Shown here one piece after another: positions 14,970 to 62,333 of a stretch of DNA of 64,000 bases. Within the stretch, counting starts at the first letter, position 1; each line of letters starts with the position of its first letter. This DNA is from an uncultured Pseudomonadales bacterium (lineage in GTDB: Bacteria > Patescibacteriota > Microgenomatia > UBA1400 > Chazhemtobacteraceae), in contig CAYQZQ010000001.1 in assembly GCA_964422035.1 (NCBI GenBank), positions 50,528-114,527 of the forward strand, in the 5' to 3' direction. The position numbers and the translations under genes were made by a program. The notes beneath the pieces are model-generated. The model saw only the letters and a list, made by a program, of their open reading frames with translations. It did no database searches and was not told the origin of the DNA.

Positions 14970-16637
14970 ATGCGAAAAAAAATAAAAAATGCAGTTTTGG
15001 AGGCTTTAAAAAGTTTGGATTGGAAAACTAAAAAAGTAGAACTGGAACACCCACAGGAGGATAGTTTTGGAGACTACTCCACAAGCGTGGCCTTGAAAGA
15101 AGCTGCAAAAAGTAAAAAGGAGGCAAGAGAGTTGGCTGAGGAATTGCTGGAGAAACTAGAAGAAGAAGGAATTGTAGGTGTGGAGGAGATCAAGCTTGCG
15201 GGGGCGGGATTTATTAACTTATATTTAAGTGAGGAGTGGTTGATCAGCCAGGCGGAAAAAGTGGTCAAAAAAGGGGAAAGATATGGAAGGAGCAGTTGGG
15301 GGAAGGACAGGAGAATGCTGATTGATTATTCTGCACCAAATATTGCCAAACAGTTTAGTGTGGGGCACTTGCGGAGCACTATTATTGGTCAGGCGATTTA
15401 TAATTTGTATGATTTTGGAGGCTGGGAAACGATTGGAGACAATCATTTAGGAGATTGGGGCACTCAGTTTGGAATGATAATTGCAGCAGTTGAAGAGGAG
15501 GGCTTGAATATAGATAAGATGAGTGTTACTCAGATGGAGGACTTGTATGTTGAGTACAACAAGAAAGCAAAAGAGGATGAGGAGTATCAAGAGAAGGCCA
15601 GGGAAGCTTTTTTAAGGCTTGAAAAAGGAGAGGAGGAGGCTAAAAAAATCTGGCAAGAGGCGGTTAAGGTGAGTATGGAAGAGTTTGTAAAAATCTATGA
15701 TCTTTTAGATGTAAAAATTGATATGGCTTTAGGAGAGAGTTTTTATGAAGACAAGATGGGTAAGGTTATAAAAGAGGCAAAGGAGAGCGGGATTGCAGTC
15801 GAGGGGGAGGGTGGTTCATGGATTGTTGAGTTTGAGGATATGCCACCGGCTATGCTGGTTAAATCAGATGGGGCAACAACTTATTTTACCCGTGATTTGG
15901 CAACTGTTAAGCACAGAGTAAGTGATGATAAGCTTAAATCAGATCTTTATGTATACGAGGTTGGAGCAGAGCAGAAACTGCATTTTAGACAAGTGTTTGC
16001 TGCAGCGGAAAAGCTAGGCTGGGTGGAAAATGATCAGTTAGTACATGTTGCTCATGGGTTAGTTTTGGATAGTAAGGGCAAAAAGATGAGTACCAGGAAG
16101 GGAACTGTTGAGAGTATGGAGGAGCTTTTGGATAAGGCGATTAAGAAAGCTGAGAGTATTAATGAAAAGTCAGCGCAGAAAGTAGGAGTGGGAGCGGTGA
16201 AGTTTAATGACTTAAAGCATGAACCACAGACTAGTTATCGTTTTGACTGGGAGCAGGCTTTGAGCCTGGAGGGTGATAGTGGTCCTTATCTGCAGTACAC
16301 AGCAGTGAGATGCAAAAGTGTGCTTAGTAAATCAGAGAAAAAGAAGAGTGACTGGTCAGAGGTGGACTGGGAGGAAGTGAGTGATGAGGGTAAAAGGGTC
16401 TTGCGCTGGATGTATAGATTCCCGCAGAAGGTAAAGGAGTCAGCGGTTAAGTTTGCACCCAATATTTTGGCTTCGTATTTGTTGGAGCTGGGACAAAGAT
16501 ATAATAGTTTTTATAACAAGCGACAGATTATAGATAGTGAGAACGAGGATTTGAGGCTACTTTTAACGGCAGCAAGTGGTCAGATTTTTGAGAACGGACT
16601 GGGTATTTTAGGGATAAAAGTACCCAGCAAGATGTAA
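14970..16637 (+). CDS. argS: Arginyl-tRNA synthetase
   Basis: N-terminal Arg_tRNA_synt_N-like region. Catalytic core with GNHLGDWGTQFGMII. KMSTRKG (ArgRS-type degenerate KMSKS). C-terminal DALR anticodon-binding domain. The HIGH region reads FSVGH. Confidence 0.95.
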   Translation: MRKKIKNAVLEALKSLDWKTKKVELEHPQEDSFGDYSTSVALKEAAKSKKEARELAEELLEKLEEEGIVGVEEIKLAGAGFINLYLSEEWLISQAEKVVKKGERYGRSSWGKDRRMLIDYSAPNIAKQFSVGHLRSTIIGQAIYNLYDFGGWETIGDNHLGDWGTQFGMIIAAVEEEGLNIDKMSVTQMEDLYVEYNKKAKEDEEYQEKAREAFLRLEKGEEEAKKIWQEAVKVSMEEFVKIYDLLDVKIDMALGESFYEDKMGKVIKEAKESGIAVEGEGGSWIVEFEDMPPAMLVKSDGATTYFTRDLATVKHRVSDDKLKSDLYVYEVGAEQKLHFRQVFAAAEKLGWVENDQLVHVAHGLVLDSKGKKMSTRKGTVESMEELLDKAIKKAESINEKSAQKVGVGAVKFNDLKHEPQTSYRFDWEQALSLEGDSGPYLQYTAVRCKSVLSKSEKKKSDWSEVDWEEVSDEGKRVLRWMYRFPQKVKESAVKFAPNILASYLLELGQRYNSFYNKRQIIDSENEDLRLLLTAASGQIFENGLGILGIKVPSKM

Positions 16638-22390: not shown

Positions 22391-22909
22391 ATGGGCAGGA
22401 TAGAGAAGATTCGTTCTACAAATCCAAAACTTTTGGAGGGGGAAAACAAGCAGATGGTGTCTGTGTGGAGACAGAGACTGGATGACAAGGAAAAACGTAA
22501 GCTTAATCATGAGGGGGCGATTTTATTTACATATAATGACGAGATTGTAGATCATGTATGCTTACGCGGACTTCGATTTAAGGCAGAAAGCGAAGAGGAG
22601 TTGGAGAGAATGAGAGAGGAGTTGGCCCGTAGAGTGATTGCAGAGGGAAAGATGTGGCAACTGGGAGGGGATTGGAAAGTATTATGGCTTGAACCGAGGA
22701 GAAATAGTGCAGGAGGGGGAAGTTATAGATATAAATTTTGGGATACGAAAGCAAGCTCAAGGGAAGATTCTAATATCCAGAGAGTTGGAGGATACACAAA
22801 AAGTAAATACAGGCATAGTAAGCACCGTCAGTCGGTGTCGGATTATTTGAAGAGAACAGAAAGGTACAAAAATAACCAGTTTAGAAAGAAGTGGAAGAAG
22901 GATAAATAG
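22391..22909 (+). CDS. Hypothetical basic protein (172 aa)
   Basis: ORF only; no motif recognised. Confidence 0.4.
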   Translation: MGRIEKIRSTNPKLLEGENKQMVSVWRQRLDDKEKRKLNHEGAILFTYNDEIVDHVCLRGLRFKAESEEELERMREELARRVIAEGKMWQLGGDWKVLWLEPRRNSAGGGSYRYKFWDTKASSREDSNIQRVGGYTKSKYRHSKHRQSVSDYLKRTERYKNNQFRKKWKKDK

Positions 22910-22960
22910 AATTTGACAGGTGTTTGGGGGATATTTATAATTGCCTACGCACGTTAACAA

Positions 22961-23046
22961 GGGGCTGTCGTCTAATGGTAAGACATCCGGTTTTATAAAT
23001 TTATCCTCGCACCGGAAAAATATGGGTTCGAGTCCCATCAGTCCCT
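22961..23046 (+). tRNA. tRNA-like gene with a 21-nt anticodon loop (insertion, mini-intron or pseudogene); isotype undetermined
   Basis: Cloverleaf read directly from the sequence. Acceptor GGGGCTG/CAGTCCC (one G-U pair). D-arm GTCT-AATGGTA-AGAC. Anticodon stem TCCGG/CCGGA enclosing TTTTATAAATTTATCCTCGCA (21 nt instead of 7). Variable region AAAAT. T-arm ATGGG-TTCGAGT-CCCAT. Discriminator T. Confidence 0.5.
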
Positions 23047-23048
23047 AT

Positions 23049-23189
23049 AGGAAGGAAGTTGGTTAGGGCCGACCATGGTCTAAGGTTAAATACTCTTATT
23101 GAATGAGAGTGAACTAGTACCGTGAGGGAATTTCACATTCAATCAGCGTATTTGTTTTCCCACTAAATGCTTCCACCAACTTCCTTCCT
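23049..23189. repeat. 15-bp perfect inverted repeat (aGGAAGGAAGTTGGT ... ACCAACTTCCTTCCt) enclosing about 110 nt that carries a 23S-rRNA-like 15-mer (AGTACCGTGAGGGAA)
   Basis: Left arm 23049-23063, right arm 23175-23189, exact reverse complements. The internal sequence gaactAGTACCGTGAGGGAAtttc is identical over 15 nt to the conserved 23S rRNA domain I segment GAGUACCGUGAGGGAAAGG. The element sits exactly between two tRNA-like genes. Confidence 0.5.
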
Positions 23190-23199
23190 TTTGTACTTT

Positions 23200-23272
23200 G
23201 CGTCTGTAGCTTAACTGGTAAAGCCTAAGGTCCACTTCCTTAGAGTTGAGAGTTCAACTCTCTCCAGGCGCT
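23200..23272 (+). tRNA. tRNA-like gene with a non-canonical anticodon loop TCCACTT (C33, pyrimidine 37); formal anticodon CAC
   Basis: Acceptor GCGTCTG/CAGGCGC (one G-U pair). D-arm GCTT-AACTGGTA-AAGC. Anticodon stem TAAGG/CCTTA. Variable region GAGTT. T-arm GAGAG-TTCAACT-CTCTC. Discriminator T. The plus-strand fold is better than the minus-strand fold, which has a C-A mismatch in the acceptor stem. Confidence 0.5.
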
Positions 23273-23657
23273 TTAGAAAGTTTGCTTAATGCTGAGTCGC
23301 ATATCAGCTGTGTACTTGATAGCAGGCTTTCTTATACCGTGGGGTAAAAAAATAAACGAGTAGCTAATTACTCGGTCTCCTCCTTTGAGATATTTTTTAC
23401 AACCCCACGGTTTTTTTGTGGTACAAATTGGTTTATATGAGGCTGTAAGCTTGATGTAAATTAAGAGAGTGAATGTAATAACAAGTGTACTTTGAAAGGC
23501 ACGCCTAGGGTTAGTTGTTTTCAGCCAAGGCTCGGCCTTTTTGAACTCCTTGCTTAGCCGCAGGGGAGTAAACTGAGTTTTTTTAATTGTCTTTCCCTCA
23601 GTTTGTACTTTGTTCTTGTGGCTTTTTTTATGCTTTAAAATTGGTAAGATAGAGGTT

Positions 23658-25046
23658 ATGAAGTTACACAATTCATTAACAGATGAAAGGGAGGAATTTG
23701 TACCTTTGGGAGATGTGGTAAGGATGTATACTTGCGGACCGACTGTTTATGATTATGTGACGATAGGTAACTGGAGAACATACACTTTGGGGGACTTTGT
23801 AGTTAGAACACTTAAGTTTTTGGGGTATGAAGTTAAGTATGTGATGAATATTACTGATGTTGGTCATTTAACCGGTGATAATTTAGGGGACTCTGATAGT
23901 GGTGAGGACAGGATGGAGAAGGCCAGTGAGCGGGAAGGCAAGACTGCCAGTGAACTGGCTGATTTTTATAGCAAGGATTTTAAAAAAGGGATGGAGAAGT
24001 TGAATTTTGTTATGCCTGACAAGCTGCCTAAGGCAACGGCTCATATTGATGAGCAGATTGAGATGATTGAAAAGATTGAGAAGAAAGGGTTTGCCTATCA
24101 GATATCGGATGGAGTGTATTTTGATACCAGCGCTTATGAAAAAGCAGGCAATGAGTATGGCAAGTTATCATCGTTGGATGAGATAAAAGAAGGAGCAAGA
24201 GTTGAAGTTAATGAGGAGAAAAAGGATGCGCGAGATTTTGCTTTATGGAAGTTTTCAAAAGAGAAAGATCGACAGATGGAGTGGGACAGTCCTTGGGGGA
24301 TAGGGTTTCCCGGTTGGCATATAGAGTGCTCGGCTATGAGTATGGAATATCTGGGCAGTCAGTTTGATATTCATATTGGTGGTGAAGACTTGCGTTCTAC
24401 ACACCATCCGAATGAGATTGCCCAGAGTGAGACAGTAAGTGGAAAAAAGCCGTTTGTTAAGTACTGGCTGCATGGAGCATTTTTGCAAGTGGATGGAGGC
24501 AGAATGGGGAAGAGCTTGGGTAATGCATATAGTTTGCATGATCTGGAAGAGAGGGGATACTCAGCGCTTGATCTAAGATACTTTTTTTTGACAGGACACT
24601 GGCGTAAGCCGTTGAATTTTACCTGGGAGGCTCTGGAGGCAGCCAAGGTGGCCCGAAAGAAGCTGGTAAGTAGAGTCAGTCATTGGCAAGAGAAGGGGGA
24701 AAAGGGTGGAGGCTGTTTTGAGTATGAAGAAAAGTTTGTAGAGGCGGTGGAGGATAATCTGAACATGCCAAAAGCGCTGGCGGTGATGTGGGATATGATA
24801 AAAAGTGAAGAGGAAGGTAGAGATAAGCTGGCAAGTGTGATCAGATTTGACAGAATTTTGGGCTTGGGGCTGCAGGAGAGAAAAATAGTTGAGATACCGG
24901 AGAGAATTCGGGAGCTGGTAAGAAAAAGAGAATGGCTGCGGGAGCAGAGAAAATGGGATGAGGCAGATGAGGTAAGAGAGAAGATTGAAAGCCAGGGATT
25001 TAAGCTTGAGGATGAGGATGAACAAACCAAGATTGTTTCTGAGTAG
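23658..25046 (+). CDS. cysS: Cysteinyl-tRNA synthetase with a variant HIGH (TIGN) and variant KMSKS (RMGKS)
   Basis: CGPTVYDY..., zinc-ligand region GWHIECSAM, HIGGEDL..HHPNEIAQSE, and a C-terminal DALR-2-like region. ORF-track start 23610; the ATG at 23658 (MKLHNSL) has a GGAGG-like RBS (GAGG) 6 nt upstream. Confidence 0.9.
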   Translation: MKLHNSLTDEREEFVPLGDVVRMYTCGPTVYDYVTIGNWRTYTLGDFVVRTLKFLGYEVKYVMNITDVGHLTGDNLGDSDSGEDRMEKASEREGKTASELADFYSKDFKKGMEKLNFVMPDKLPKATAHIDEQIEMIEKIEKKGFAYQISDGVYFDTSAYEKAGNEYGKLSSLDEIKEGARVEVNEEKKDARDFALWKFSKEKDRQMEWDSPWGIGFPGWHIECSAMSMEYLGSQFDIHIGGEDLRSTHHPNEIAQSETVSGKKPFVKYWLHGAFLQVDGGRMGKSLGNAYSLHDLEERGYSALDLRYFFLTGHWRKPLNFTWEALEAAKVARKKLVSRVSHWQEKGEKGGGCFEYEEKFVEAVEDNLNMPKALAVMWDMIKSEEEGRDKLASVIRFDRILGLGLQERKIVEIPERIRELVRKREWLREQRKWDEADEVREKIESQGFKLEDEDEQTKIVSE

Positions 25047-25838: not shown

Positions 25839-26087
25839 ATGAAAGATCAGAAAATAGGTGAAGTAACTCACTTTTATACTGGTATTAATGTAGCTATTGT
25901 GAAGCTGGAAGGTAAGCTGTCTGTAGGTGACAAGGTTATTTTTGAGGGAGCAACTACTGATTTTGAGCAGGAAGTTGATGATATGGAGTTTGATCACGAA
26001 AAACTGCAGGAAGCAGAAGCCGGCCAGGAAGTAGGTATTAAGGTAAAGGAAAGAGTAAGAGAGGGTGATGAGGTGTATTTAGCTTAA
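25839..26087 (+). CDS. Small EF-Tu domain-2-like beta-barrel protein
   Basis: 82 aa; pattern GINVAIVKLEGKLSVGDKV...AEAGQEVGIKVKERVREGDEV resembles EF-Tu/IF2 domain II. Confidence 0.45.
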   Translation: MKDQKIGEVTHFYTGINVAIVKLEGKLSVGDKVIFEGATTDFEQEVDDMEFDHEKLQEAEAGQEVGIKVKERVREGDEVYLA

Positions 26088-26131: not shown

Positions 26132-26368
26132 TTGGATAGACAAGAGAGGCTAGACTGGTATAATTGGGTTATGATGAAGTTTGTCAATTTTTTATTGAGT
26201 AGCCTTTCAGGTAAGAGGAATTTTTCCGTTGAGGAAGGTGTGAAGTATAGTCTGAAAAAATACAAGAAGGCCTATAAATTGCTGGAGAAGTATGACCAAG
26301 AAACTGCAAAAGACTGCCAAGAATTGGCTGACCCTGAAGACTTGCGCTCTTCTATTCAAGAGCTTTAA
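26132..26368 (+). CDS. Small hypothetical protein upstream of and overlapping the Doc/Fic gene; possible cognate antitoxin
   Basis: 78-aa ORF ending inside the 5' part of the Fic/Doc ORF in another frame; no motif recognised. Confidence 0.25.
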   Translation: MDRQERLDWYNWVMMKFVNFLLSSLSGKRNFSVEEGVKYSLKKYKKAYKLLEKYDQETAKDCQELADPEDLRSSIQEL

Positions 26369-26741
26369 GCAAGGGCTTGAATTTGGGGAACCGATTCCGG
26401 TTTTTGATAGCAGGTATCCAGGTAAGTTAGAGGGTATTTTGGATTCAGTGAGGCAGACCTATGACGGGAATTACTTGAATGCGACTGTAGCTGACGCATC
26501 AGCGGCATATTTTAATCAGTTAATTAGGGGCCATCCGTTTGAAAATGGAAATAAGAGAATGGCAGTTTTGTTTAGCCACTTTTTTCTTTTGAGAAATGGA
26601 GTAGATTTTACTTTGGGAAATCGGCAGATGTACCGATTTGCTTTAATAATTGCTAAAGCGGGAGAAAGTGGAATTAAAGCTGATGAGACAAAAAGGTGGT
26701 GTAAGCAGATTATTATACGATTTACTGAGGAGAAAAAATGA
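26292..26741 (+). CDS. Fic/Doc family protein (death-on-curing-like toxin)
   Basis: Fic motif HPFENGNKRMAV (HPFx[DE]GNKR). Size is Doc-like. True start uncertain: no in-frame ATG/GTG/TTG downstream of the 26368 stop, so the genes probably overlap. Confidence 0.7.
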   Translation: MTKKLQKTAKNWLTLKTCALLFKSFKQGLEFGEPIPVFDSRYPGKLEGILDSVRQTYDGNYLNATVADASAAYFNQLIRGHPFENGNKRMAVLFSHFFLLRNGVDFTLGNRQMYRFALIIAKAGESGIKADETKRWCKQIIIRFTEEKK

Positions 26742-49439: not shown

Positions 49440-50750
49440 GTGTCAAAAACAATTGAGAAAAAGACTAGTAATTTAAACAAAATAAGAGCGGTATTGATAG
49501 GTTTGTTGTTGTTGGTTCTGGGTGGATTGGGTGGATGGGGAATGGGATATAAAACTGGTAAGCTGCAAAAAGAGAATGGCGGACCTTCATTGCAGGAAGT
49601 AGTAAACAGGCAATCGGGTGAGGAGACGGTTGATTTTAGTTTGTTCTGGGATGTGTGGGGCAGGCTGGAGAGAAGTTTTTTGGATCAGAGTAAGTTGAAC
49701 GCACAGAAGATGGTATATGGAGCGATTGAGGGCATGACTGGTGCTTTGGGTGACCCATACACTTCATTTTTACCTCCTTCGGAGAATAAGCAGACGAAAC
49801 AGGATTTGGCTGGTGAGTTTGCAGGAGTAGGAATTCAGCTGGGATACAAGGATGAGACGTTGGCTGTTATTGCACCCTTGGAGGGGCACCCGGCGATAGA
49901 GCAGGGAGTTGAGGCGGGGGACTTGATACTGCATATTAAAGATGAGAAAAAGGATGTTGATATAGATACTAAGGGAATGAGTTTGCCGGAAGCGGTAAGC
50001 ATAATCAGAGGTAAAAAAGGAGAACCGGTAACTTTAACTTTATATAGTAAAGGAGACGAAGAGGAAAGAGAGGTAACAATTGTTAGAGATACAATCGTTG
50101 TACCAACTGTTGAGTTGGTTTTTGTTGGTAGAGCAGGAGAAACTGTTGAGTCGGGTACATCGTATGCTCATCTTAAGGTAGCCAGATTTGGTGAAAAAAC
50201 TGCTTCGGAGTGGGAGGATGCAGTTGATCAAATTGTGGCAAGAGGTGATGTCGGCGGAGTAGTTTTGGATATGCGCAATAACCCGGGTGGATATCTGCAA
50301 AGAGCGGTTGATCTGGCAGGTGAGTTTGTAAGCTCAGGCTCAGTAGTAGTGCAAGAGGAGGGGAGAGAGAAGACTGTTGAGTTTAAATCAGATAGAAGAG
50401 GCAGGCTTTTAAATGTACCCTTAGTGGTTTTGGTAAATGAAGGTAGCGCCTCGGCTAGTGAGATACTGGCAGGAGCTTTGCGTGACCAGGTAGGGGCTAA
50501 ACTGGTAGGGGAGAATACATTTGGAAAAGGGACAGTGCAAGAAGCCCAGGAGTTGAGAGATGGGGCAGGGTTGCATGTAACTATTGCCAGGTGGCTATTG
50601 CCAAGTGGTGAAAATATTCATGAGACAGGACTTGAACCGGATGTAGTGGTAGAAAATGAACGGGTAGATGGTGAGTTGGTAGACAAGCAACTGCAAAAAG
50701 CGATTGAGGTATTAGATGAGCAAAGTATGGTGGCAGGACTTGAAAATTAG
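49440..50750 (+). CDS. ctpA: Carboxyl-terminal processing protease (S41, CtpA/Prc-like)
   Basis: N-terminal TM anchor, PDZ domain, S41 catalytic region (RNNPGGYLQRAVDLAGEFV...LVNEGSASASE with Ser/Lys dyad context). Confidence 0.8.
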   Translation: MSKTIEKKTSNLNKIRAVLIGLLLLVLGGLGGWGMGYKTGKLQKENGGPSLQEVVNRQSGEETVDFSLFWDVWGRLERSFLDQSKLNAQKMVYGAIEGMTGALGDPYTSFLPPSENKQTKQDLAGEFAGVGIQLGYKDETLAVIAPLEGHPAIEQGVEAGDLILHIKDEKKDVDIDTKGMSLPEAVSIIRGKKGEPVTLTLYSKGDEEEREVTIVRDTIVVPTVELVFVGRAGETVESGTSYAHLKVARFGEKTASEWEDAVDQIVARGDVGGVVLDMRNNPGGYLQRAVDLAGEFVSSGSVVVQEEGREKTVEFKSDRRGRLLNVPLVVLVNEGSASASEILAGALRDQVGAKLVGENTFGKGTVQEAQELRDGAGLHVTIARWLLPSGENIHETGLEPDVVVENERVDGELVDKQLQKAIEVLDEQSMVAGLEN

Positions 50751-57650: not shown

Positions 57651-58309
57651 GTAAAAGCTGGGACGAAATATATCAAAAAGAGGGCAGAAAATATGTAAGT
57701 AGATTGACTTATTTAGAAAAGCTGTCTAAATTTTGGAAGGAAAATAAGGTTAAGAGGGTGTTGGATGTGGGGTGTGGAGCAGGAGAACACCTGAGAAAAA
57801 TGAATGATTATGGATTTGAGGTAGCAGGAATGGATATATCTGAAAAGGCAGTGGATATAGCAAGAGATAAGTTTAAGAATAGTAAAGCTAGAAGTGATAT
57901 AAAGGTAGCTTCGATGCATAATGAGTGGCCTTTTGTGGATGAAAGCTTTGGAGGCGTAATGGCTTTGCGATCTTTCAATCACGGTTTTCTAAGAGAGATC
58001 AGGTTTGCTATTGAAGAGGTGAGAAGAATGTTAAAACCGGGAGGGTGGTTTTTTATGACGACCTTGATGATACCAGGAAGAAAGGTAGTGCAAGGAATAA
58101 CAACTTTAAATACCATGAAAGCAGTGATGATTAGACCCAGGACTTATGTTCCTTTGGAAGGGAAAGAAGTGGGGGTAGTACATTATATTTTTAATAAAAA
58201 GATTATTAGGCAGGAGTTGTCAGGTTTTGTTATTGAGGATCTGTGGGTAGATTATGGGGAAAAAGAATGGGAGAGATATTATTGTGTATTGGCCAAGAAG
58301 TTAGCGTAA
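57632..58309 (+). CDS. Class I SAM-dependent methyltransferase (paralogue C)
   Basis: VLDVGCGAGEHL; LRSFNHG...LKPGGWFFM...PRTYVPLEGKEVGVVHYIFN...EDLWVDYGEKEWERYYCVLAKK, collinear with the protein at 48584. Confidence 0.75.
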   Translation: MGSKKMSKSWDEIYQKEGRKYVSRLTYLEKLSKFWKENKVKRVLDVGCGAGEHLRKMNDYGFEVAGMDISEKAVDIARDKFKNSKARSDIKVASMHNEWPFVDESFGGVMALRSFNHGFLREIRFAIEEVRRMLKPGGWFFMTTLMIPGRKVVQGITTLNTMKAVMIRPRTYVPLEGKEVGVVHYIFNKKIIRQELSGFVIEDLWVDYGEKEWERYYCVLAKKLA

Positions 58310-58894
58310 GGAATCAAACCAACTATCAAGTTGTTGATAAAAGTCTGATTCAATTCCTACGTAAGGCATGTTTTTTTTCAACTCTTGAATAAATATTTGT
58401 CGTTGATTAATTGAGTGGTGAACAATAGGTTGATCATGAGGGACAATTGCAAGCTTAGTTTGTTGAATATTCTGACATGGTTTGTTGATGGGTAGATGGG
58501 CTTTTTCTAAGTCTGGATCCCAAGTAGCGTCGAGTAAGCAAGAGTGATCGTGAAATGATAGAGAAATACAGAGATGATACTGAAGAGGCATTTTTTTACT
58601 TAGTTTTTCTAGGGAAGGAGGGTAGTTTGCTGGCAACTCTTGCCAGTAAAAAGGAAAAGTAAGATATTTAACAGTCAGATTGTATTTTTCAAGCCATTCT
58701 CCTAAAAGATAGTGTTTATCTGTACAACCACCTTTTTGAAATTTGATAATGCTTTCTTTCCATGAAAGAGAAGAGGGAGGTGGGGTACCAAAAGGAATAT
58801 CTCTTACCTTTAAGTAGAGAGGTAGGATTTGTTGCTCTAAAGATTCAGACAGTTCAGGAGTACTGGTATAGCACTGAAACCTTTCCTTATTCAT
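58301..58894 (-). CDS. Transglutaminase-like superfamily protein (Cys-His-Asp papain-like core)
   Basis: Candidate Cys in QKGGCTDKHYLL, His in LQYHLCISL, Asp in LLDATWDP, in transglutaminase-like order. Confidence 0.4.
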   Translation of the reverse strand: MNKERFQCYTSTPELSESLEQQILPLYLKVRDIPFGTPPPSSLSWKESIIKFQKGGCTDKHYLLGEWLEKYNLTVKYLTFPFYWQELPANYPPSLEKLSKKMPLQYHLCISLSFHDHSCLLDATWDPDLEKAHLPINKPCQNIQQTKLAIVPHDQPIVHHSINQRQIFIQELKKNMPYVGIESDFYQQLDSWFDSLR

Positions 58895-59011
58895 ATACCC
58901 TGTATTATATATTATTGAGACTCTATGTGAAACTTTAAGGATAATGGAGGTTTAATATAAACAAAAACTTTTGATACAGATCAGATTGTGAGGAAAATTA
59001 GAAACTTTTAT

Positions 59012-59920
59012 TTATCGGCGTTTTTCTACGAGAAATACACCTAGGATGATGATTATGATAGCGATGATTTCAAGTGTTTTTATGTGTTCTGAGAGGAGGA
59101 GGTAGGCAGTGGGGACAGCAAAGAGGGGTTGTAAATAGGTAAAGACAGCGGCTTCTGAGGCTTCAATCTTTTCTTGGCCTTTTAGATATAAAGTTAAGCC
59201 AATAACTGAGCCGAAGATACCCATATATAGAGAAGCAATTAGGGGAGAGCGGGCGGATTGGGTGAAAAGAGTGGTGATTTGGTTGATGGGTGAGTGGCCG
59301 ACAAAAAGGCTGTATGAAGCGAAAACTAGAAGAGCTATCCAAAAACTGATGTGAGTGGTGACCCATTTGTTAAGTTTTTTGTAGTGTTTTTTAGCTAGGA
59401 GTAAGTAGGCAGCCATGGAGATGTTTTGCAGGAAAATGAGAATGTTGCCAAAAAGAGCACCGTTGAAGCCTTTTCTTATAACAGGCTCGATGACTAGTAG
59501 AATTGTACCGATGATGGCAATGAAAAGGCCAATTAACTCATTTTTTTCTTCTTTTTCTTTAAAGATAAAAATTCCGCCTATGGTAACAAAGATGGGCCAG
59601 GTGACGGCGATTAAAGTAGCTTCGATAGAGGTGGTGTGGTTTAGGCCGATGTAGAGTAGGGAAAGGGTAACAACGGTGCCTAAAAGTTCCAAAAGGACGA
59701 TGGTTATTAGTTGTTTGAAGGTAGGGGGATTTTTTTTGATAGCGATGATGCCGATGGGGAGGGAGAAGATTACAGCAAAGAAAAAGCGGGCTAGAAGGAA
59801 GGTAAGGGGAGTGAGCCCATTTAGAAAACCTAGTTTAATGATAGGAAAGGCGATACCCCAGAAAAAGGCATTGCCAACAAGCATAAGATAGGCTACAAGA
59901 CGATTAGGAGTTAGCTTCAT
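59012..59920 (-). CDS. EamA/DMT-superfamily transporter (10 TM)
   Basis: 302 aa; two EamA-like 5-TM repeats; hydrophobic throughout. Confidence 0.7.
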   Translation of the reverse strand: MKLTPNRLVAYLMLVGNAFFWGIAFPIIKLGFLNGLTPLTFLLARFFFAVIFSLPIGIIAIKKNPPTFKQLITIVLLELLGTVVTLSLLYIGLNHTTSIEATLIAVTWPIFVTIGGIFIFKEKEEKNELIGLFIAIIGTILLVIEPVIRKGFNGALFGNILIFLQNISMAAYLLLAKKHYKKLNKWVTTHISFWIALLVFASYSLFVGHSPINQITTLFTQSARSPLIASLYMGIFGSVIGLTLYLKGQEKIEASEAAVFTYLQPLFAVPTAYLLLSEHIKTLEIIAIIIIILGVFLVEKRR

Positions 59921-61164
59921 GAGGAAAGTTTATCAATAAGTTCTTTTTGTGTTAAGAGAGACTGATCTCCTGATCTCATGTCTTTGAGGGTTATTTTTTG
60001 TTCTTTTGTTTCTTCTGGGCCGATGATGGCTACAAAAGAGACGTTTTTCTTGTCGGCGTATTTAAGCTGTTTGCCGATGTCTGTTTTAGAGTTGGTGTAT
60101 AAAAGAGTATTAACACCAGCCTGGCGGAGCTTATCGGCTAGTTGTAAAGATTTTTCCACTAAATCTTGATTGAAGATGGTGACCAAGATTTGAGCAGAGG
60201 AGAGGTCTTCAGGGAAGAGATCCAGCTTTTCCATAGCCTCTATGGTGCGATCAAAGCCTATGGCTAGACCAACAGCTGGAACGTTAAAGTCACTTAGTTG
60301 GCCAATTAGCTTATCGTATCGACCGCCGCCAGCCAGTGAGCCGGCCTTAAACTGAGGAGACTTGAGCTCAAAAATAGTGGAGGTATAGTAATCAAGGCCG
60401 CGGGCGAGGGTAGGCTTGAATTCAAGTTGTGTTTCAAGTACACCTAGAAGCTGACAGAGACCAATTAGTTGTTTGGTGTTTTCATCTGGTTTGGCGGAGT
60501 CAATAAGATTGAAGAGTTTGTCAACTTTTTGAGTATCGATTTGTTTGCCTTCAAGCTCTTTTTTAATTTTTTGGGTAGATTGCTTGTCCAGTTTATCTAT
60601 GGATTGGATGACAGAATTAGCTTTGTTTTTGTCGATGCCTGTTTGTTTGATTAAGTCAAATAAAAGAGAGCGTGAGTTTAATAGCATTTTGATGTTTTTA
60701 AAACCTAAGTTTTGATAGGTTTTTAGAGTGGTGGCGATGATTTGGGCGTCTGCCAGTAGTGAGTCTTCACCGAAGATGTCGATGTCGCACTGGAGGAACT
60801 CGCGGAAACGGCCCTTTTGAGGATTCTCAGCTCGCCAGACGGGCTGGATTTGATAGCGCTTGAAAGGTAGACCAAGATTGTTGCGGTAGGCGGCAATAAC
60901 GCGGGAGACAGGCACAGTCTGGTCGAAGCGTAAGCCCACCTTTCTGTTACCTTGATCAGTAAAGGTAAAAACTAATTTGTCGGTTTCTTGTCCGGATTTG
61001 CCCATTAGCAACTCTTGCCTTTCCAGGGCAGGGGTTTGGAGTGGTTCAAAGCCAAACAGCTCGAAGCTTTGGCGGATTTTATCTAAGGCGAACTGACGTT
61101 TTCTGGCTTGGGAGGGCAGAAAATCACGAAAGCCTTTTAGTGGTTGTAGATTTTGTTTGTCCAT
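59917..61164 (-). CDS. hisS: Histidyl-tRNA synthetase
   Basis: Class II motifs: motif 1 region LKGFRDFLP; motif 2 (FKRYQIQPVWRAENPQKGRFREFLQCDID); motif 3 (GGGRYD); C-terminal anticodon-binding domain. Adjacent to tRNA-His. Confidence 0.95.
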   Translation of the reverse strand: MDKQNLQPLKGFRDFLPSQARKRQFALDKIRQSFELFGFEPLQTPALERQELLMGKSGQETDKLVFTFTDQGNRKVGLRFDQTVPVSRVIAAYRNNLGLPFKRYQIQPVWRAENPQKGRFREFLQCDIDIFGEDSLLADAQIIATTLKTYQNLGFKNIKMLLNSRSLLFDLIKQTGIDKNKANSVIQSIDKLDKQSTQKIKKELEGKQIDTQKVDKLFNLIDSAKPDENTKQLIGLCQLLGVLETQLEFKPTLARGLDYYTSTIFELKSPQFKAGSLAGGGRYDKLIGQLSDFNVPAVGLAIGFDRTIEAMEKLDLFPEDLSSAQILVTIFNQDLVEKSLQLADKLRQAGVNTLLYTNSKTDIGKQLKYADKKNVSFVAIIGPEETKEQKITLKDMRSGDQSLLTQKELIDKLSS

Positions 61165-61198
61165 ATTTAGATATTAACATTGATAACGTGTAAATGGG

Positions 61199-61271
61199 GG
61201 AGATCGACGGGATTTGAACCCGCAACCGTCGGTACCACAAACCGATGCTCTACCATTGAGCTACGATCTCC
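61199..61271 (-). tRNA. tRNA-His (anticodon GTG) with genomically encoded G-1
   Basis: Minus-strand cloverleaf. G-1 plus GAGATCG acceptor pairing with CGATCTC-C73. D-arm GCTC-AATGGTA-GAGC. Anticodon arm TCGGT-TTGTGGT-ACCGA. Variable region CGGTT. T-arm GCGGG-TTCAAAT-CCCGT. Followed by CCCA. Confidence 0.9.
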
Positions 61272-61303
61272 ATATAAAAAACCTGGCGATTAAGCCAGGC
61301 ATA

Positions 61304-61327
61304 TAAAAAAACGGACCAAGTGGTCCG
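61304..61327 (-). terminator. Rho-independent terminator on the minus strand (CGGACC-ACUU-GGUCCG followed by U7-8)
   Basis: Plus-strand sequence AAAAAAAACGGACCAAGTGGTCCG. On the minus strand the hairpin is followed by the U-tract. Lies about 170 nt downstream of the 61497 gene stop. Confidence 0.6.
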
Positions 61328-61496
61328 ATTGTATTTGCCTGACTCGGTTTCCCTTATGGGTGACATCAGGTGATTTTTTACGGAAATCTAACCGGCTGGC
61401 ATTTGACCAGCAGCTGGCTTAGGCGTGAACTAAGCTCATAACGCTTTGTTTTGTGTTTTTAAGGTAAAAGTAGTATATAACCCTATAAGACTAATG

Positions 61497-62333
61497 TCAA
61501 TTCTGGGTGCAGTCGGCTGGGCACGTTTCTGGAGTTTCAGGTTCGGGGCAACCTAGGCCTTGACAGACTACATCCTGGCAGATGCCGTCTCCACAAGTGC
61601 CTGCCTGGGCTGAGTCTGTGGCTGGGCTAGTTGTGTCATTGATTTGCTCTGAGATAGGGAAGGCGATTAGATTTAGAATGCCGATGTCTTGATCGTCTGT
61701 GTCTACTGAGAGAACCAGGGCGACTGATTGATTGATTTGGAGATCTTCAATGTCAATTTCTTGTTGGTTGATGGTGGTCAGAATGGTGTTTGAGGAGATG
61801 GCTATTGGGTCATTCAGATAGGAGCTGTGGTTGGAAAAGGTTATGGTGTCGTCTTGTATTTGCTCAATTTGGGCGTAGGCGATACGGCGAATGGAGGAGG
61901 GGGGAGTGTAGTCGTCAACTACGATACGTTGAGCTGTGAGTGTTTGTTCATTTTGGAGAGTGCCCATGGCGATGATGTAATCACCGATTTGAAAGTCTTC
62001 AATCTGGACTTCTGTTTGGCCGACTTTTATCAGGTTTGTGTCAGGAGTGACGATAGCTTGTTTGATGACGGTGGCTGAGCCGTGGTTGGGGTTGATGGTG
62101 ATGGAGATGGTTTCCTCTGAGATGGATTCAATTAAGCCGACGAAAGCTTTTAGAGAGGCTTGTTCACCTAGAGTTTTATTATTGATGTTTTCATCAACGG
62201 ATTGCTTGATGCGTTCTTTTAGGTCTTTTTGAATCTCTTCTGCTGAGTTAGTGGCTTCTTGGGCATTGATAAGCTGAGGAGCAAGTAGAATGGAGAGAGA
62301 TAGTAAAAAGGCGACTGCGATTTTGTTTTTCAT
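61497..62333 (-). CDS. Secreted hypothetical protein with a C-terminal Cys-rich knot
   Basis: Signal peptide (MKNKIAVAFLLSLSILLAPQLINAQE); C-terminus GTCGDGICQDVVCQGLGCPEPETPETCPADC. Confidence 0.5.
   Translation of the reverse strand: MKNKIAVAFLLSLSILLAPQLINAQEATNSAEEIQKDLKERIKQSVDENINNKTLGEQASLKAFVGLIESISEETISITINPNHGSATVIKQAIVTPDTNLIKVGQTEVQIEDFQIGDYIIAMGTLQNEQTLTAQRIVVDDYTPPSSIRRIAYAQIEQIQDDTITFSNHSSYLNDPIAISSNTILTTINQQEIDIEDLQINQSVALVLSVDTDDQDIGILNLIAFPISEQINDTTSPATDSAQAGTCGDGICQDVVCQGLGCPEPETPETCPADCTQN

Follow-up and report, generated by a model that had tools for sequence, protein, structure and literature searches.

Elements shaped like tRNAs that act as signals for RNA processing (t-elements) have been documented for plant mitochondria, archaea and mammalian long non-coding RNAs; to our knowledge, and in the searches made, none has been reported for bacteria. 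Those of plant mitochondria are tRNA-like processing signals (PMC1920247). In Haloferax, a t-element lies 5' of the 5S rRNA, and an RNA flanked by tRNA-like elements is released by RNase P and tRNase Z (PMC4326828). The mascRNA-type elements of MALAT1 and MEN-beta are cut by RNase P and RNase Z (PMC8457004). Here, a tRNA-like gene (tRNA-like 1, positions 22961-23046) and its flanks were analysed in a 64,000-nucleotide (nt) stretch of contig CAYQZQ010000001.1; this whole stretch is called the window. The evidence throughout is DNA sequence and predicted structure. The gene specifies a complete cloverleaf in which a 21-nt loop takes the place of the anticodon loop, and on the model developed below its most likely role is as a signal in tRNA shape by which a non-coding RNA operon is handled or cut, and not as a decoder.

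Like the t-elements of plant mitochondria and Haloferax volcanii, tRNA-like 1 combines a non-canonical cloverleaf, with an acceptor stem and a GGTTCRANYCC T arm, with the lack of CCA and an adjoining RNA. The order of the parts is also that of Haloferax (t-element - RNA - t-element), where it is resolved by RNase P and tRNase Z. Unlike those elements, tRNA-like 1 is bacterial, from the candidate phyla radiation (CPR), has a D arm and an anticodon stem that are both complete and covary, carries a loop enlarged to 15-30 nt instead of a degenerate arm, and flanks a hairpin with a variable interior and not an rRNA or mRNA. With mascRNA and its MEN-beta counterpart (Rfam RF01684; PMC8457004) it shares a tRNA-shaped module in a longer non-coding transcript and an anticodon arm that does not decode. 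In contrast, mascRNA is eukaryotic and nuclear and has a reduced anticodon arm; among Rfam families other than tRNA, tmRNA included, mascRNA-menRNA was the only one to reach E < 10, with a mere 20.6 bits for a gathering score of 42.5. As far as the sequence indicates, what is new here is a t-element-like RNA in the CPR whose cloverleaf is complete and whose loop is enlarged and free; t-elements themselves were already known.

tRNA-like 1 reads GGGGCTG TC GTCT AATGGTA AGAC A TCCGG TTTTATAAATTTATCCTCGCA CCGGA AAAAT ATGGG TTCGAGT CCCAT CAGTCCC T. Its acceptor stem is of 7 bp (GGGGCTG/CAGTCCC) and includes G4:U69; both the D and the T arm are present, as are the elbow nucleotides U8, A14, G18 G19, U54 U55 C56 and A58; the discriminator is U (23046) and CCA is not encoded. 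The Rfam model RF00005 matched the gene over model positions 1-71 (57.9 bits for a gathering score of 29, E = 6.7e-10 over the whole window), and its alignment treated 17 bases of the anticodon loop as an insertion. With RNAfold, the minimum free energy (MFE) structure was the cloverleaf, the loop being left open and unstructured over 19-21 nt. Sequence, Rfam score and fold agree with an earlier note on this DNA, which had described a 21-nt loop in a TCCGG/CCGGA stem and an otherwise canonical cloverleaf. The T-arm motif GGTTCGAGTCC (23025-23035) matches the GGTTCRANYCC of t-elements. Decoding is where the gene fails: it has no 7-nt anticodon loop with U33 and a purine at 37, and full enumeration of the 14-nt excisions from the window loop bore out the earlier statement that none yields both. 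Standard ARAGORN did not report the gene. Compared with 79 distinct ARAGORN tRNAs from the fetched loci, a reference set biased to Gln, it gave a top match of 29/64, with a tRNA-Gln. An extra T-arm motif at 50628-50638 was discarded as a chance match, being antisense within a peptidase S41 gene and having no cloverleaf around it.

Relatives were reached through the lineage-specific 172-aa protein encoded upstream, homologues of which (78%, 77% and 43% identical) were found on contigs L208-L215. Four lineages, all metagenomic, were compared: the window, L208-L210, L211-L214 and L215. Rfam detected both tRNA-like 1 and a second element, tRNA-like 2, in all the L208-L215 contigs, and the whole RNA block could be aligned. 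The comparison of orthologous loci that the earlier note had proposed gave no canonical loop: beside the 21 nt of the window, the loop of tRNA-like 1 measures 17 nt in L208-L210 (TATAACAATACGCGCAA), 15 nt in L211-L214 (CAATAAATTTGCGCA) and 30 nt in L215, and no anticodon is constant, loop sequence and length differing in all four lineages. The same block was present, identical, in the separate Logan assembly of run SRR7048227 (L004). Because the loop is enlarged in four lineages (15-30 nt) and the second assembly is identical, the long loop is a real, inherited feature, and the sequencing or assembly error envisaged earlier is excluded. The enlargement is already found in the deepest sampled member, L215, in which neutral sites are saturated.

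Neutral divergence was gauged at 4-fold degenerate sites in the neighbouring 172-aa gene, and identities were computed to the window. These sites were 0.72, 0.47 and 0.20 identical in L209, L213 and L215, respectively. In the same order, identities were 0.94 (61/65), 0.83 (54/65) and 0.69 (45/65) for the body of tRNA-like 1; 0.95, 0.94 and 0.77 for the body of tRNA-like 2; 0.98, 0.83 and 0.57 for the arms of the intervening hairpin; 0.57, 0.57 and 0.38 for loop 1 (with indels); 0.29, 0.42 and 0.30 for loop 2; and 0.52, 0.47 and 0.25 for the hairpin interior. The body of tRNA-like 1 lies above the neutral level in each comparison (P = 1e-5, 2e-9 and 1e-17), and the divergence of loop 1 is about that of synonymous sites. 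All 21 pairs are standard in each lineage, with compensatory changes at six positions (acceptor pairs 1 and 4, anticodon stem pairs 1 and 3, T stem pairs 1 and 3). Two lineages have U as the discriminator and two have A, and pair 1:72 is G:C or A:U. These comparisons indicate that tRNA-like 1 is kept by selection for an L-shaped fold, to which its four stems (acceptor, D, anticodon, T) and the nucleotides of the D/T-loop elbow contribute. They also indicate that it is not a decoding tRNA, because its 'anticodon' loop is unconstrained in length and sequence.

A complementary partner of loop 1 was sought within the block; the best duplexes were no better than those of shuffled loops in three of the four lineages, which gives no support to an antisense or kissing role there. 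In L215, part of the 30-nt loop (2135-2164) is complementary to its own T-stem and acceptor 3' strand (2180-2200; -22 kcal/mol); 5 of 200 shuffles were equally good, and an alternative fold is possible in that lineage.

Table 1. Positions in the window of tRNA-like 1, its parts and the neighbouring features
Feature	Positions	Strand	Remarks
tRNA-like 1	22961..23046	+	Rfam 57.9 bits; cloverleaf is the MFE structure; 84/84 pair cells standard over four lineages
Acceptor stem of tRNA-like 1	22961-67/23039-45		
D arm of tRNA-like 1	22970-84		
Anticodon stem of tRNA-like 1	22986-90/23012-16		
Expanded 'anticodon' loop	22991..23011	+	21 nt, TTTTATAAATTTATCCTCGCA; enclosed by TCCGG/CCGGA stem
T arm of tRNA-like 1	23022-38		
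Sigma-70 promoter	22913..22941	+	TTGACA-17 nt-TATAAT; 12/12 consensus matches; both hexamers kept in four lineages
5' leader	22942..22960	+	TGCCTACGCACGTTAACAA, 19 nt; conserved; RNase P cut at 22960/22961 would remove it
Hairpin RNA	23047..23199	+	153 nt; between both tRNA-like elements; arms 23049-23063 and 23175-23189
tRNA-like 2	23200..23272	+	Rfam 52.1 bits; ARAGORN 'tRNA-Val(cac)'; discriminator U; no encoded CCA; orthologues L209:2454-2526, L213:793-870, L214:954-1026, L215:2274-2348
Non-coding trailer	23273..23417	+	about 145 nt; ends in CCGTGGGGT...ACCCCACGG stem and T7
cysS (cysteinyl-tRNA synthetase)	23658..25046	+	first gene 3' of the RNA block; Pfam tRNA-synt_1e, E = 1.2e-93

The sequence (Table 1) indicates that a very strong promoter drives tRNA-like 1, which opens a conserved non-coding operon. 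The leader core ACGCACGTT is retained in all lineages, even in L215 with its saturated neutral sites. It appears to resemble the rrn boxA (UGCUCUUUAACAA). The ...ACGCACGTTAACAA of the leader and a repeated (T)TGTACTTTG(AAA) motif were seen at 22942-22960, 23191-23200, 23485-23499 and 23603-23612; they appear to resemble the boxA antitermination boxes of rrn operons. TTGTACTTTG occurs twice for 0.18 expected, one copy ending at 23200, the first base of tRNA-like 2, and the other lying just 5' of cysS. In rrn spacers and in the tufB operon, tRNA genes are co-transcribed with rRNA or mRNA and are real decoders with fixed anticodons. The block is similar to these operons in its strong promoter, its tRNA-shaped units punctuating a polycistronic transcript, its apparently boxA-like leader and its hairpin resembling a processing stem, but neither of its units has a constant anticodon.

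The hairpin starts 1-3 nt past the discriminator of tRNA-like 1 and ends 10 nt short of tRNA-like 2 in every lineage. The arms AGGAAGGAAGTTGGT/ACCAACTTCCTTCCT close this hairpin (MFE -49.8 kcal/mol, z = -4.46) and covary to GGGAGGAG/CTCCTCCC in L215; its length is 75-153 nt across lineages. Its interior at 23066-23130 is derived from domain I of 23S rRNA, in the sense strand, and includes ...AGTGAACTAGTACCGTGAGGGAA; the match covers positions 425-511 of the large-subunit rRNA model (30.9 bits, E = 3e-8), and blastn also matched records containing rDNA. Only the window has this insert, the relatives holding a degenerate remnant (ACTTGTA..GAGGGGAATTTCA).

The loop of tRNA-like 2, UCCACUU, is non-canonical, with C33 instead of U33 and with U37. 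The scaffold is almost invariant, yet it carries CAC in the window and, in the orthologues, GAU, CAU, UUA (the anticodon of a stop suppressor) or a loop of 12 nt. The trailer is 88% (L209) and 81% (L213) identical, compared with 72% and 47% at neutral sites, and its GC-rich stem followed by T7 (23337-23417) is the probable terminator of the RNA operon. Within the CCGTGGGGT/ACCCCACGG stem, the motif GGTCTCCTCCTTTGAG (23374-23389) resembles the anti-Shine-Dalgarno 3' end of 16S rRNA. A second promoter-like site lies between the trailer and cysS. Rfam gave no match to a T-box or other known leader 5' of cysS, nor to any family for the hairpin or the trailer.

Both tRNA-like units may be bacterial t-elements cut by RNase P and RNase Z, a reading to which a probability of roughly 0.5 was assigned. 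RNase P would cut their 5' ends (22960/61 and 23199/200), and RNase Z would cut past their discriminators (23046/47 and 23272/73) because CCA is not encoded. The four cuts would free the hairpin RNA and the trailer with defined ends, plus two stable tRNA-shaped by-products. RNase P and RNase Z require mainly the acceptor/T-arm minihelix and the elbow; since they would read only the acceptor/T-arm stack and elbow, the loop would be free to grow, shrink and mutate. The acceptor stem and the T arm of the non-canonical cloverleaf both covary, and in every lineage tRNA-like 1 adjoins the hairpin, with tRNA-like 2 next, as in the t-element architecture. CCA is missing from both elements and is encoded by the canonical tRNA-His of the same window; its absence, unlike in that tRNA, is compatible with RNase Z cleavage.

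Several points weigh against t-elements as the whole explanation. Processing by RNase P and RNase Z is proposed from the shape of the elements. The anticodon stem is conserved, with two compensatory pairs, though neither enzyme needs it, which hints that display of the loop, or a full L-shape for another partner, also matters. The interior of the supposed cargo, the hairpin, is unconstrained (0.52 identity, 75-153 nt), and its 23S insert is found in the window only. The comparison covers four lineages, all of them metagenomic, and the view of the tRNAs covers the 64-kb window.

A serious rival, ranked below the t-element reading and judged unlikely, makes tRNA-like 1 a tRNA mimic that binds or titrates a tRNA-binding protein; the full L-shape would be needed for binding, and the enlarged loop would be a fast-changing determinant of specificity or evasion. 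Candidate partners, at similarly low odds, are the adjacent CysRS (with autoregulation of the thrS-operator kind), a tRNA-targeting toxin or an anticodon nuclease. Such binding would fit the anticodon stem, conserved by compensatory changes despite no need from RNase P or RNase Z. It would also fit loops that change at least at the neutral rate (loop 2 is 2/7 identical for 72% expected, P = 0.02), but change faster than neutral is weakly supported by these 7 sites, and an elevated mutation rate in highly transcribed single-stranded loops could explain it. The block is always directly 5' of cysS, yet only close relatives provide this synteny, and in the nearest outgroups cysS stands without the block. 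Discriminator U73 of tRNA-like 2, which is of the Cys type, is present in all lineages, and three of the four tRNA-like 1 loops end in GCA; however, the discriminator of tRNA-like 1 is split evenly between U and A, and GCA never stands in a canonical loop context. Mimicry of tRNA-Cys was rejected as a candidate for these reasons, GCA at the 3' end of the loops being never accompanied by U33 and a purine at 37. The block also holds rRNA look-alike sequence, and no toxin or nuclease partner was identified nearby.

Somewhat less probable again is the idea that the block is a CPR non-coding RNA system of translation look-alikes acting in trans, as a decoy, sponge or specificity module. Its parts would be two tRNA-shaped RNAs with hypervariable display loops, the hairpin, able to carry 23S sequence, and the motif similar to the 16S 3' end. 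It would be expressed at levels like those of rRNA, through the consensus promoter and the boxA-like leaders, and its loops would be under diversifying selection and not merely unconstrained. Equally conjectural targets would be tRNA- or rRNA-binding toxins, nucleases, synthetases and host or phage proteins.

Well below these stands a stable tRNA-shaped RNA that would be charged without regard to its anticodon and would serve off the ribosome, perhaps by donating aminoacyl groups to modify the cell wall or lipids. The acceptor stem is intact, as are the elbow and the T arm, CCA could be added to the 3' end, and the loop would be irrelevant, as expected with an anticodon-independent synthetase. 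The known anticodon-independent identity signals that were checked argue otherwise: there is no G3:U70, the G:U sitting at 4:69 and being lost in two lineages, and there is no long variable arm, while pair 1:72 and the discriminator vary. No transferase of the Fem or MprF type was seen near the locus.

A dead tRNA gene drifting neutrally after an insertion into its anticodon loop, one of the options in the earlier note, is slightly less probable still. The loop is useless for decoding and evolves without visible constraint, and standard tRNA finders reject the gene. A decaying pseudogene is nevertheless set aside because of the purifying selection on the body outside the loop (P from 1e-5 to 1e-17), the compensatory changes that keep three stems paired, and the conserved leader and perfect consensus promoter; the loop was, moreover, already enlarged in L215.

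Lower again is the probability of a decoding tRNA with a very short intron or insertion in its loop, which the bacterium would excise or tolerate by a mechanism not yet known. In every other tRNA feature the gene is canonical, tRNA introns are unusually frequent in Patescibacteria and occur even at the odd 35/36 site (PMC13011429), and removal of 14 nt at 35/36 from the UUUU...GCA loop of the window would give a Gln-like UUUUGCA. However, the excision search in the four orthologues gave no loop with U33 and a purine at 37, and the candidate anticodons differed by lineage. Intron-aware ARAGORN (option -i), suggested earlier as a check, gave no support to an intron: the four lineages were called Ile(tat) (12-nt intron), Val(aac) (8 nt), Arg(gcg) (8 nt) and Asn(gtt) (23 nt), the introns lying at differing positions. 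Because the candidate mature anticodons disagree between lineages, the very small intron put forward in the earlier note appears very unlikely. The acceptor stem, with G1:C72 or A1:U72, and the variable discriminator are also unlike those of the tRNA-Gln genes with the same D arm.

Known splicing systems fit poorly as well. The known tRNA introns of Patescibacteria are group I ribozymes that splice themselves out; they begin after a U and have G as their last base, and their removal restores the anticodon of the homologues (PMC13011429). tRNA-like 1 has in common with these tRNAs the phylum, the extra anticodon-loop sequence and being missed by standard finders; their inserts are hundreds of nt long, whereas the excess here is 8-23 nt (14 nt in the window), is too small for a group I ribozyme, varies among close relatives and restores nothing. 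Intron_gpI was not matched in the Rfam scans, nor was any other intron family. If the sole G of the loop were used under the group I rule, UUUUACA or a 6-nt loop would remain, and U37 remains after excision at 37/38. No bulge-helix-bulge motif was found in the predicted structure, the loop being open with no helix or bulges, and no splicing endonuclease (EndA) or ligase was found among the neighbour genes scanned (64 kb of a genome of about 725 kb). Toleration of the loop in decoding fares no better. Loops of more than 7 nt also occur in otherwise normal tRNAs such as frameshift suppressors and the tRNA-Thr of yeast mitochondria, whose loop is of 8 nt (PMC3113583, PMC5009743), but the loops of those decoders are of 8 (or 9) nt and conserved for decoding, with 8 nt in the known decoding enlarged loops (PMC3113583), and not 15-30 nt and unconstrained.

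Least probable of all is a DNA-level element in the form of a tRNA gene, serving as a target of recombination or integration: integration at tRNA genes is common and the block occurs in one clade, being absent from the nearest relatives where the 172-aa gene adjoins cysS, but the compensatory changes betray selection on RNA pairing and not on DNA sequence, a consensus promoter of its own precedes the gene, the block lies among dnaX, ybaB, recR and cysS with no flanking integrase, transposase or direct repeats, and no integrated elements adjoining the gene were seen in 8 related loci. Of the earlier suggestion of a tRNA-like structural element such as a recombination target, the first part is upheld by the compensatory pairs and the RNA-level selection, and the second is not the likely role, no integrase or mobile-element gene having been found nearby.

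If the t-element reading is right, the block would provide a bacterial t-element, that is, a tRNA-shaped RNA kept purely for its shape, in a group whose RNA biology is already unusual (rRNA insertions, tRNA group I introns). It would also be a natural experiment on selection of the tRNA body minus decoding, in which four stems and the elbow persist and the loop becomes free. Gene finders miss tRNA-like 1 and mislabel tRNA-like 2 as Val, Ile, Met or stop suppressor, depending on the lineage; elements missed or mislabelled in this way can distort CPR tRNA inventories and inferences on the genetic code. The literature search gave no paper linking Patescibacteria with tRNA-like RNAs.

The distribution of the block indicates that it is an innovation of a narrow Microgenomates (CPR) clade. 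In the nearest outgroups (CysRS 65% and 62%; RecR 77% and 69%) no tRNA-like element was found at the equivalent position, and in outgroup L086 the 172-aa gene directly adjoins cysS. In outgroup L222 (5209-7388; same region in L223), the genes after recR encode a PIG-L deacetylase and a protein of the CysRS family that is shorter (413 aa), with no tRNA-like block; we take this pairing to be reminiscent of low-molecular-weight-thiol biosynthesis (MshB/MshC-like). Scans of IMG/VR for relatives, by pattern and by protein, gave unrelated tRNA-Gln and tRNA-Ser genes or nothing. A metagenome scan that used the D arm and the T loop as anchors gave mostly Acidobacteria-type tRNA-Gln(CUG) among the matches listed, and a genome scan with CysRS gave mostly distant phyla, with no syntenic tRNAs found.

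Within the clade, L214 has a 174-aa upstream protein and a tRNA-like 1 that are the same as in L211-L213, and from the hairpin onward it is of the L208/window type (hairpin interior and the D, T and anticodon loops of tRNA-like 2); this looks like a recombination breakpoint inside the block. The cysS leader of the relatives (L209:2700-2960 and the equivalents in L212 and L213) contains an extra module of about 210 nt, absent at about 23520 in the window. It consists of a hairpin (7 bp, loop of 12 nt), a T-arm-like TTCGG-TTCGAGT-CCGAA and then a GGGAGGAGGTTGC...GCAACCTCCTCCC hairpin, and is a second, partial copy of the unit made of a tRNA-like 3' half and a GGRAGGARG hairpin.

The window is part of a CPR (Microgenomates) bacterial chromosome and not of a phage, because the CysRS homologues are from Patescibacteria/Microgenomates and the neighbours include dnaX, ybaB, recR, ychF, rpsF and mur genes. 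The nearest CysRS homologues are all of this origin (Collierbacteria, Beckwithbacteria), and the exact CysRS protein (P0001) was found on a 725,544-bp contig. The gene order is dnaX-ybaB-recR-two small open reading frames (ORFs)-[RNA block]-cysS...ychF-rpsF, and ArgRS, YbeY, Mur ligases and MurA are encoded elsewhere in the window. A large-phage origin, prompted by PHROG matches, the one-strand gene layout and a GC skew near 0.45, was ruled out by the Patescibacteria homologues and the housekeeping neighbours. The housekeeping ArgRS (14970-16637) and CysRS (23610-25046) strongly match PHROG families of 'unknown function' (phrog_15344, 3e-117; phrog_30090, 2e-77), and such matches can falsely hint at a phage.

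The GC skew is extreme across the window (1-64000), at 0.35-0.55 in each 2-kb window, and nearly all genes are on the plus strand. The skew falls to 0.22 at 60-62 kb, where the strand switches (around 58300-62300) and a run of minus-strand genes is found; the canonical tRNA-His, with encoded CCA, lies there too (61195-61271, minus strand). A 93-aa ORF on the minus strand (22757-23038) is almost certainly spurious, because of the strand bias and its overlaps with the 172-aa gene and tRNA-like 1. Downstream of cysS, an 82-aa ORF (25839-26087) matches domain 2 only of EF-Tu (E = 3.8e-8), and a gene of the Fic/DOC family (26292-26741) lies just 3' of it. EF-Tu is the target of Doc toxins, and the two genes might form a toxin-partner pair.

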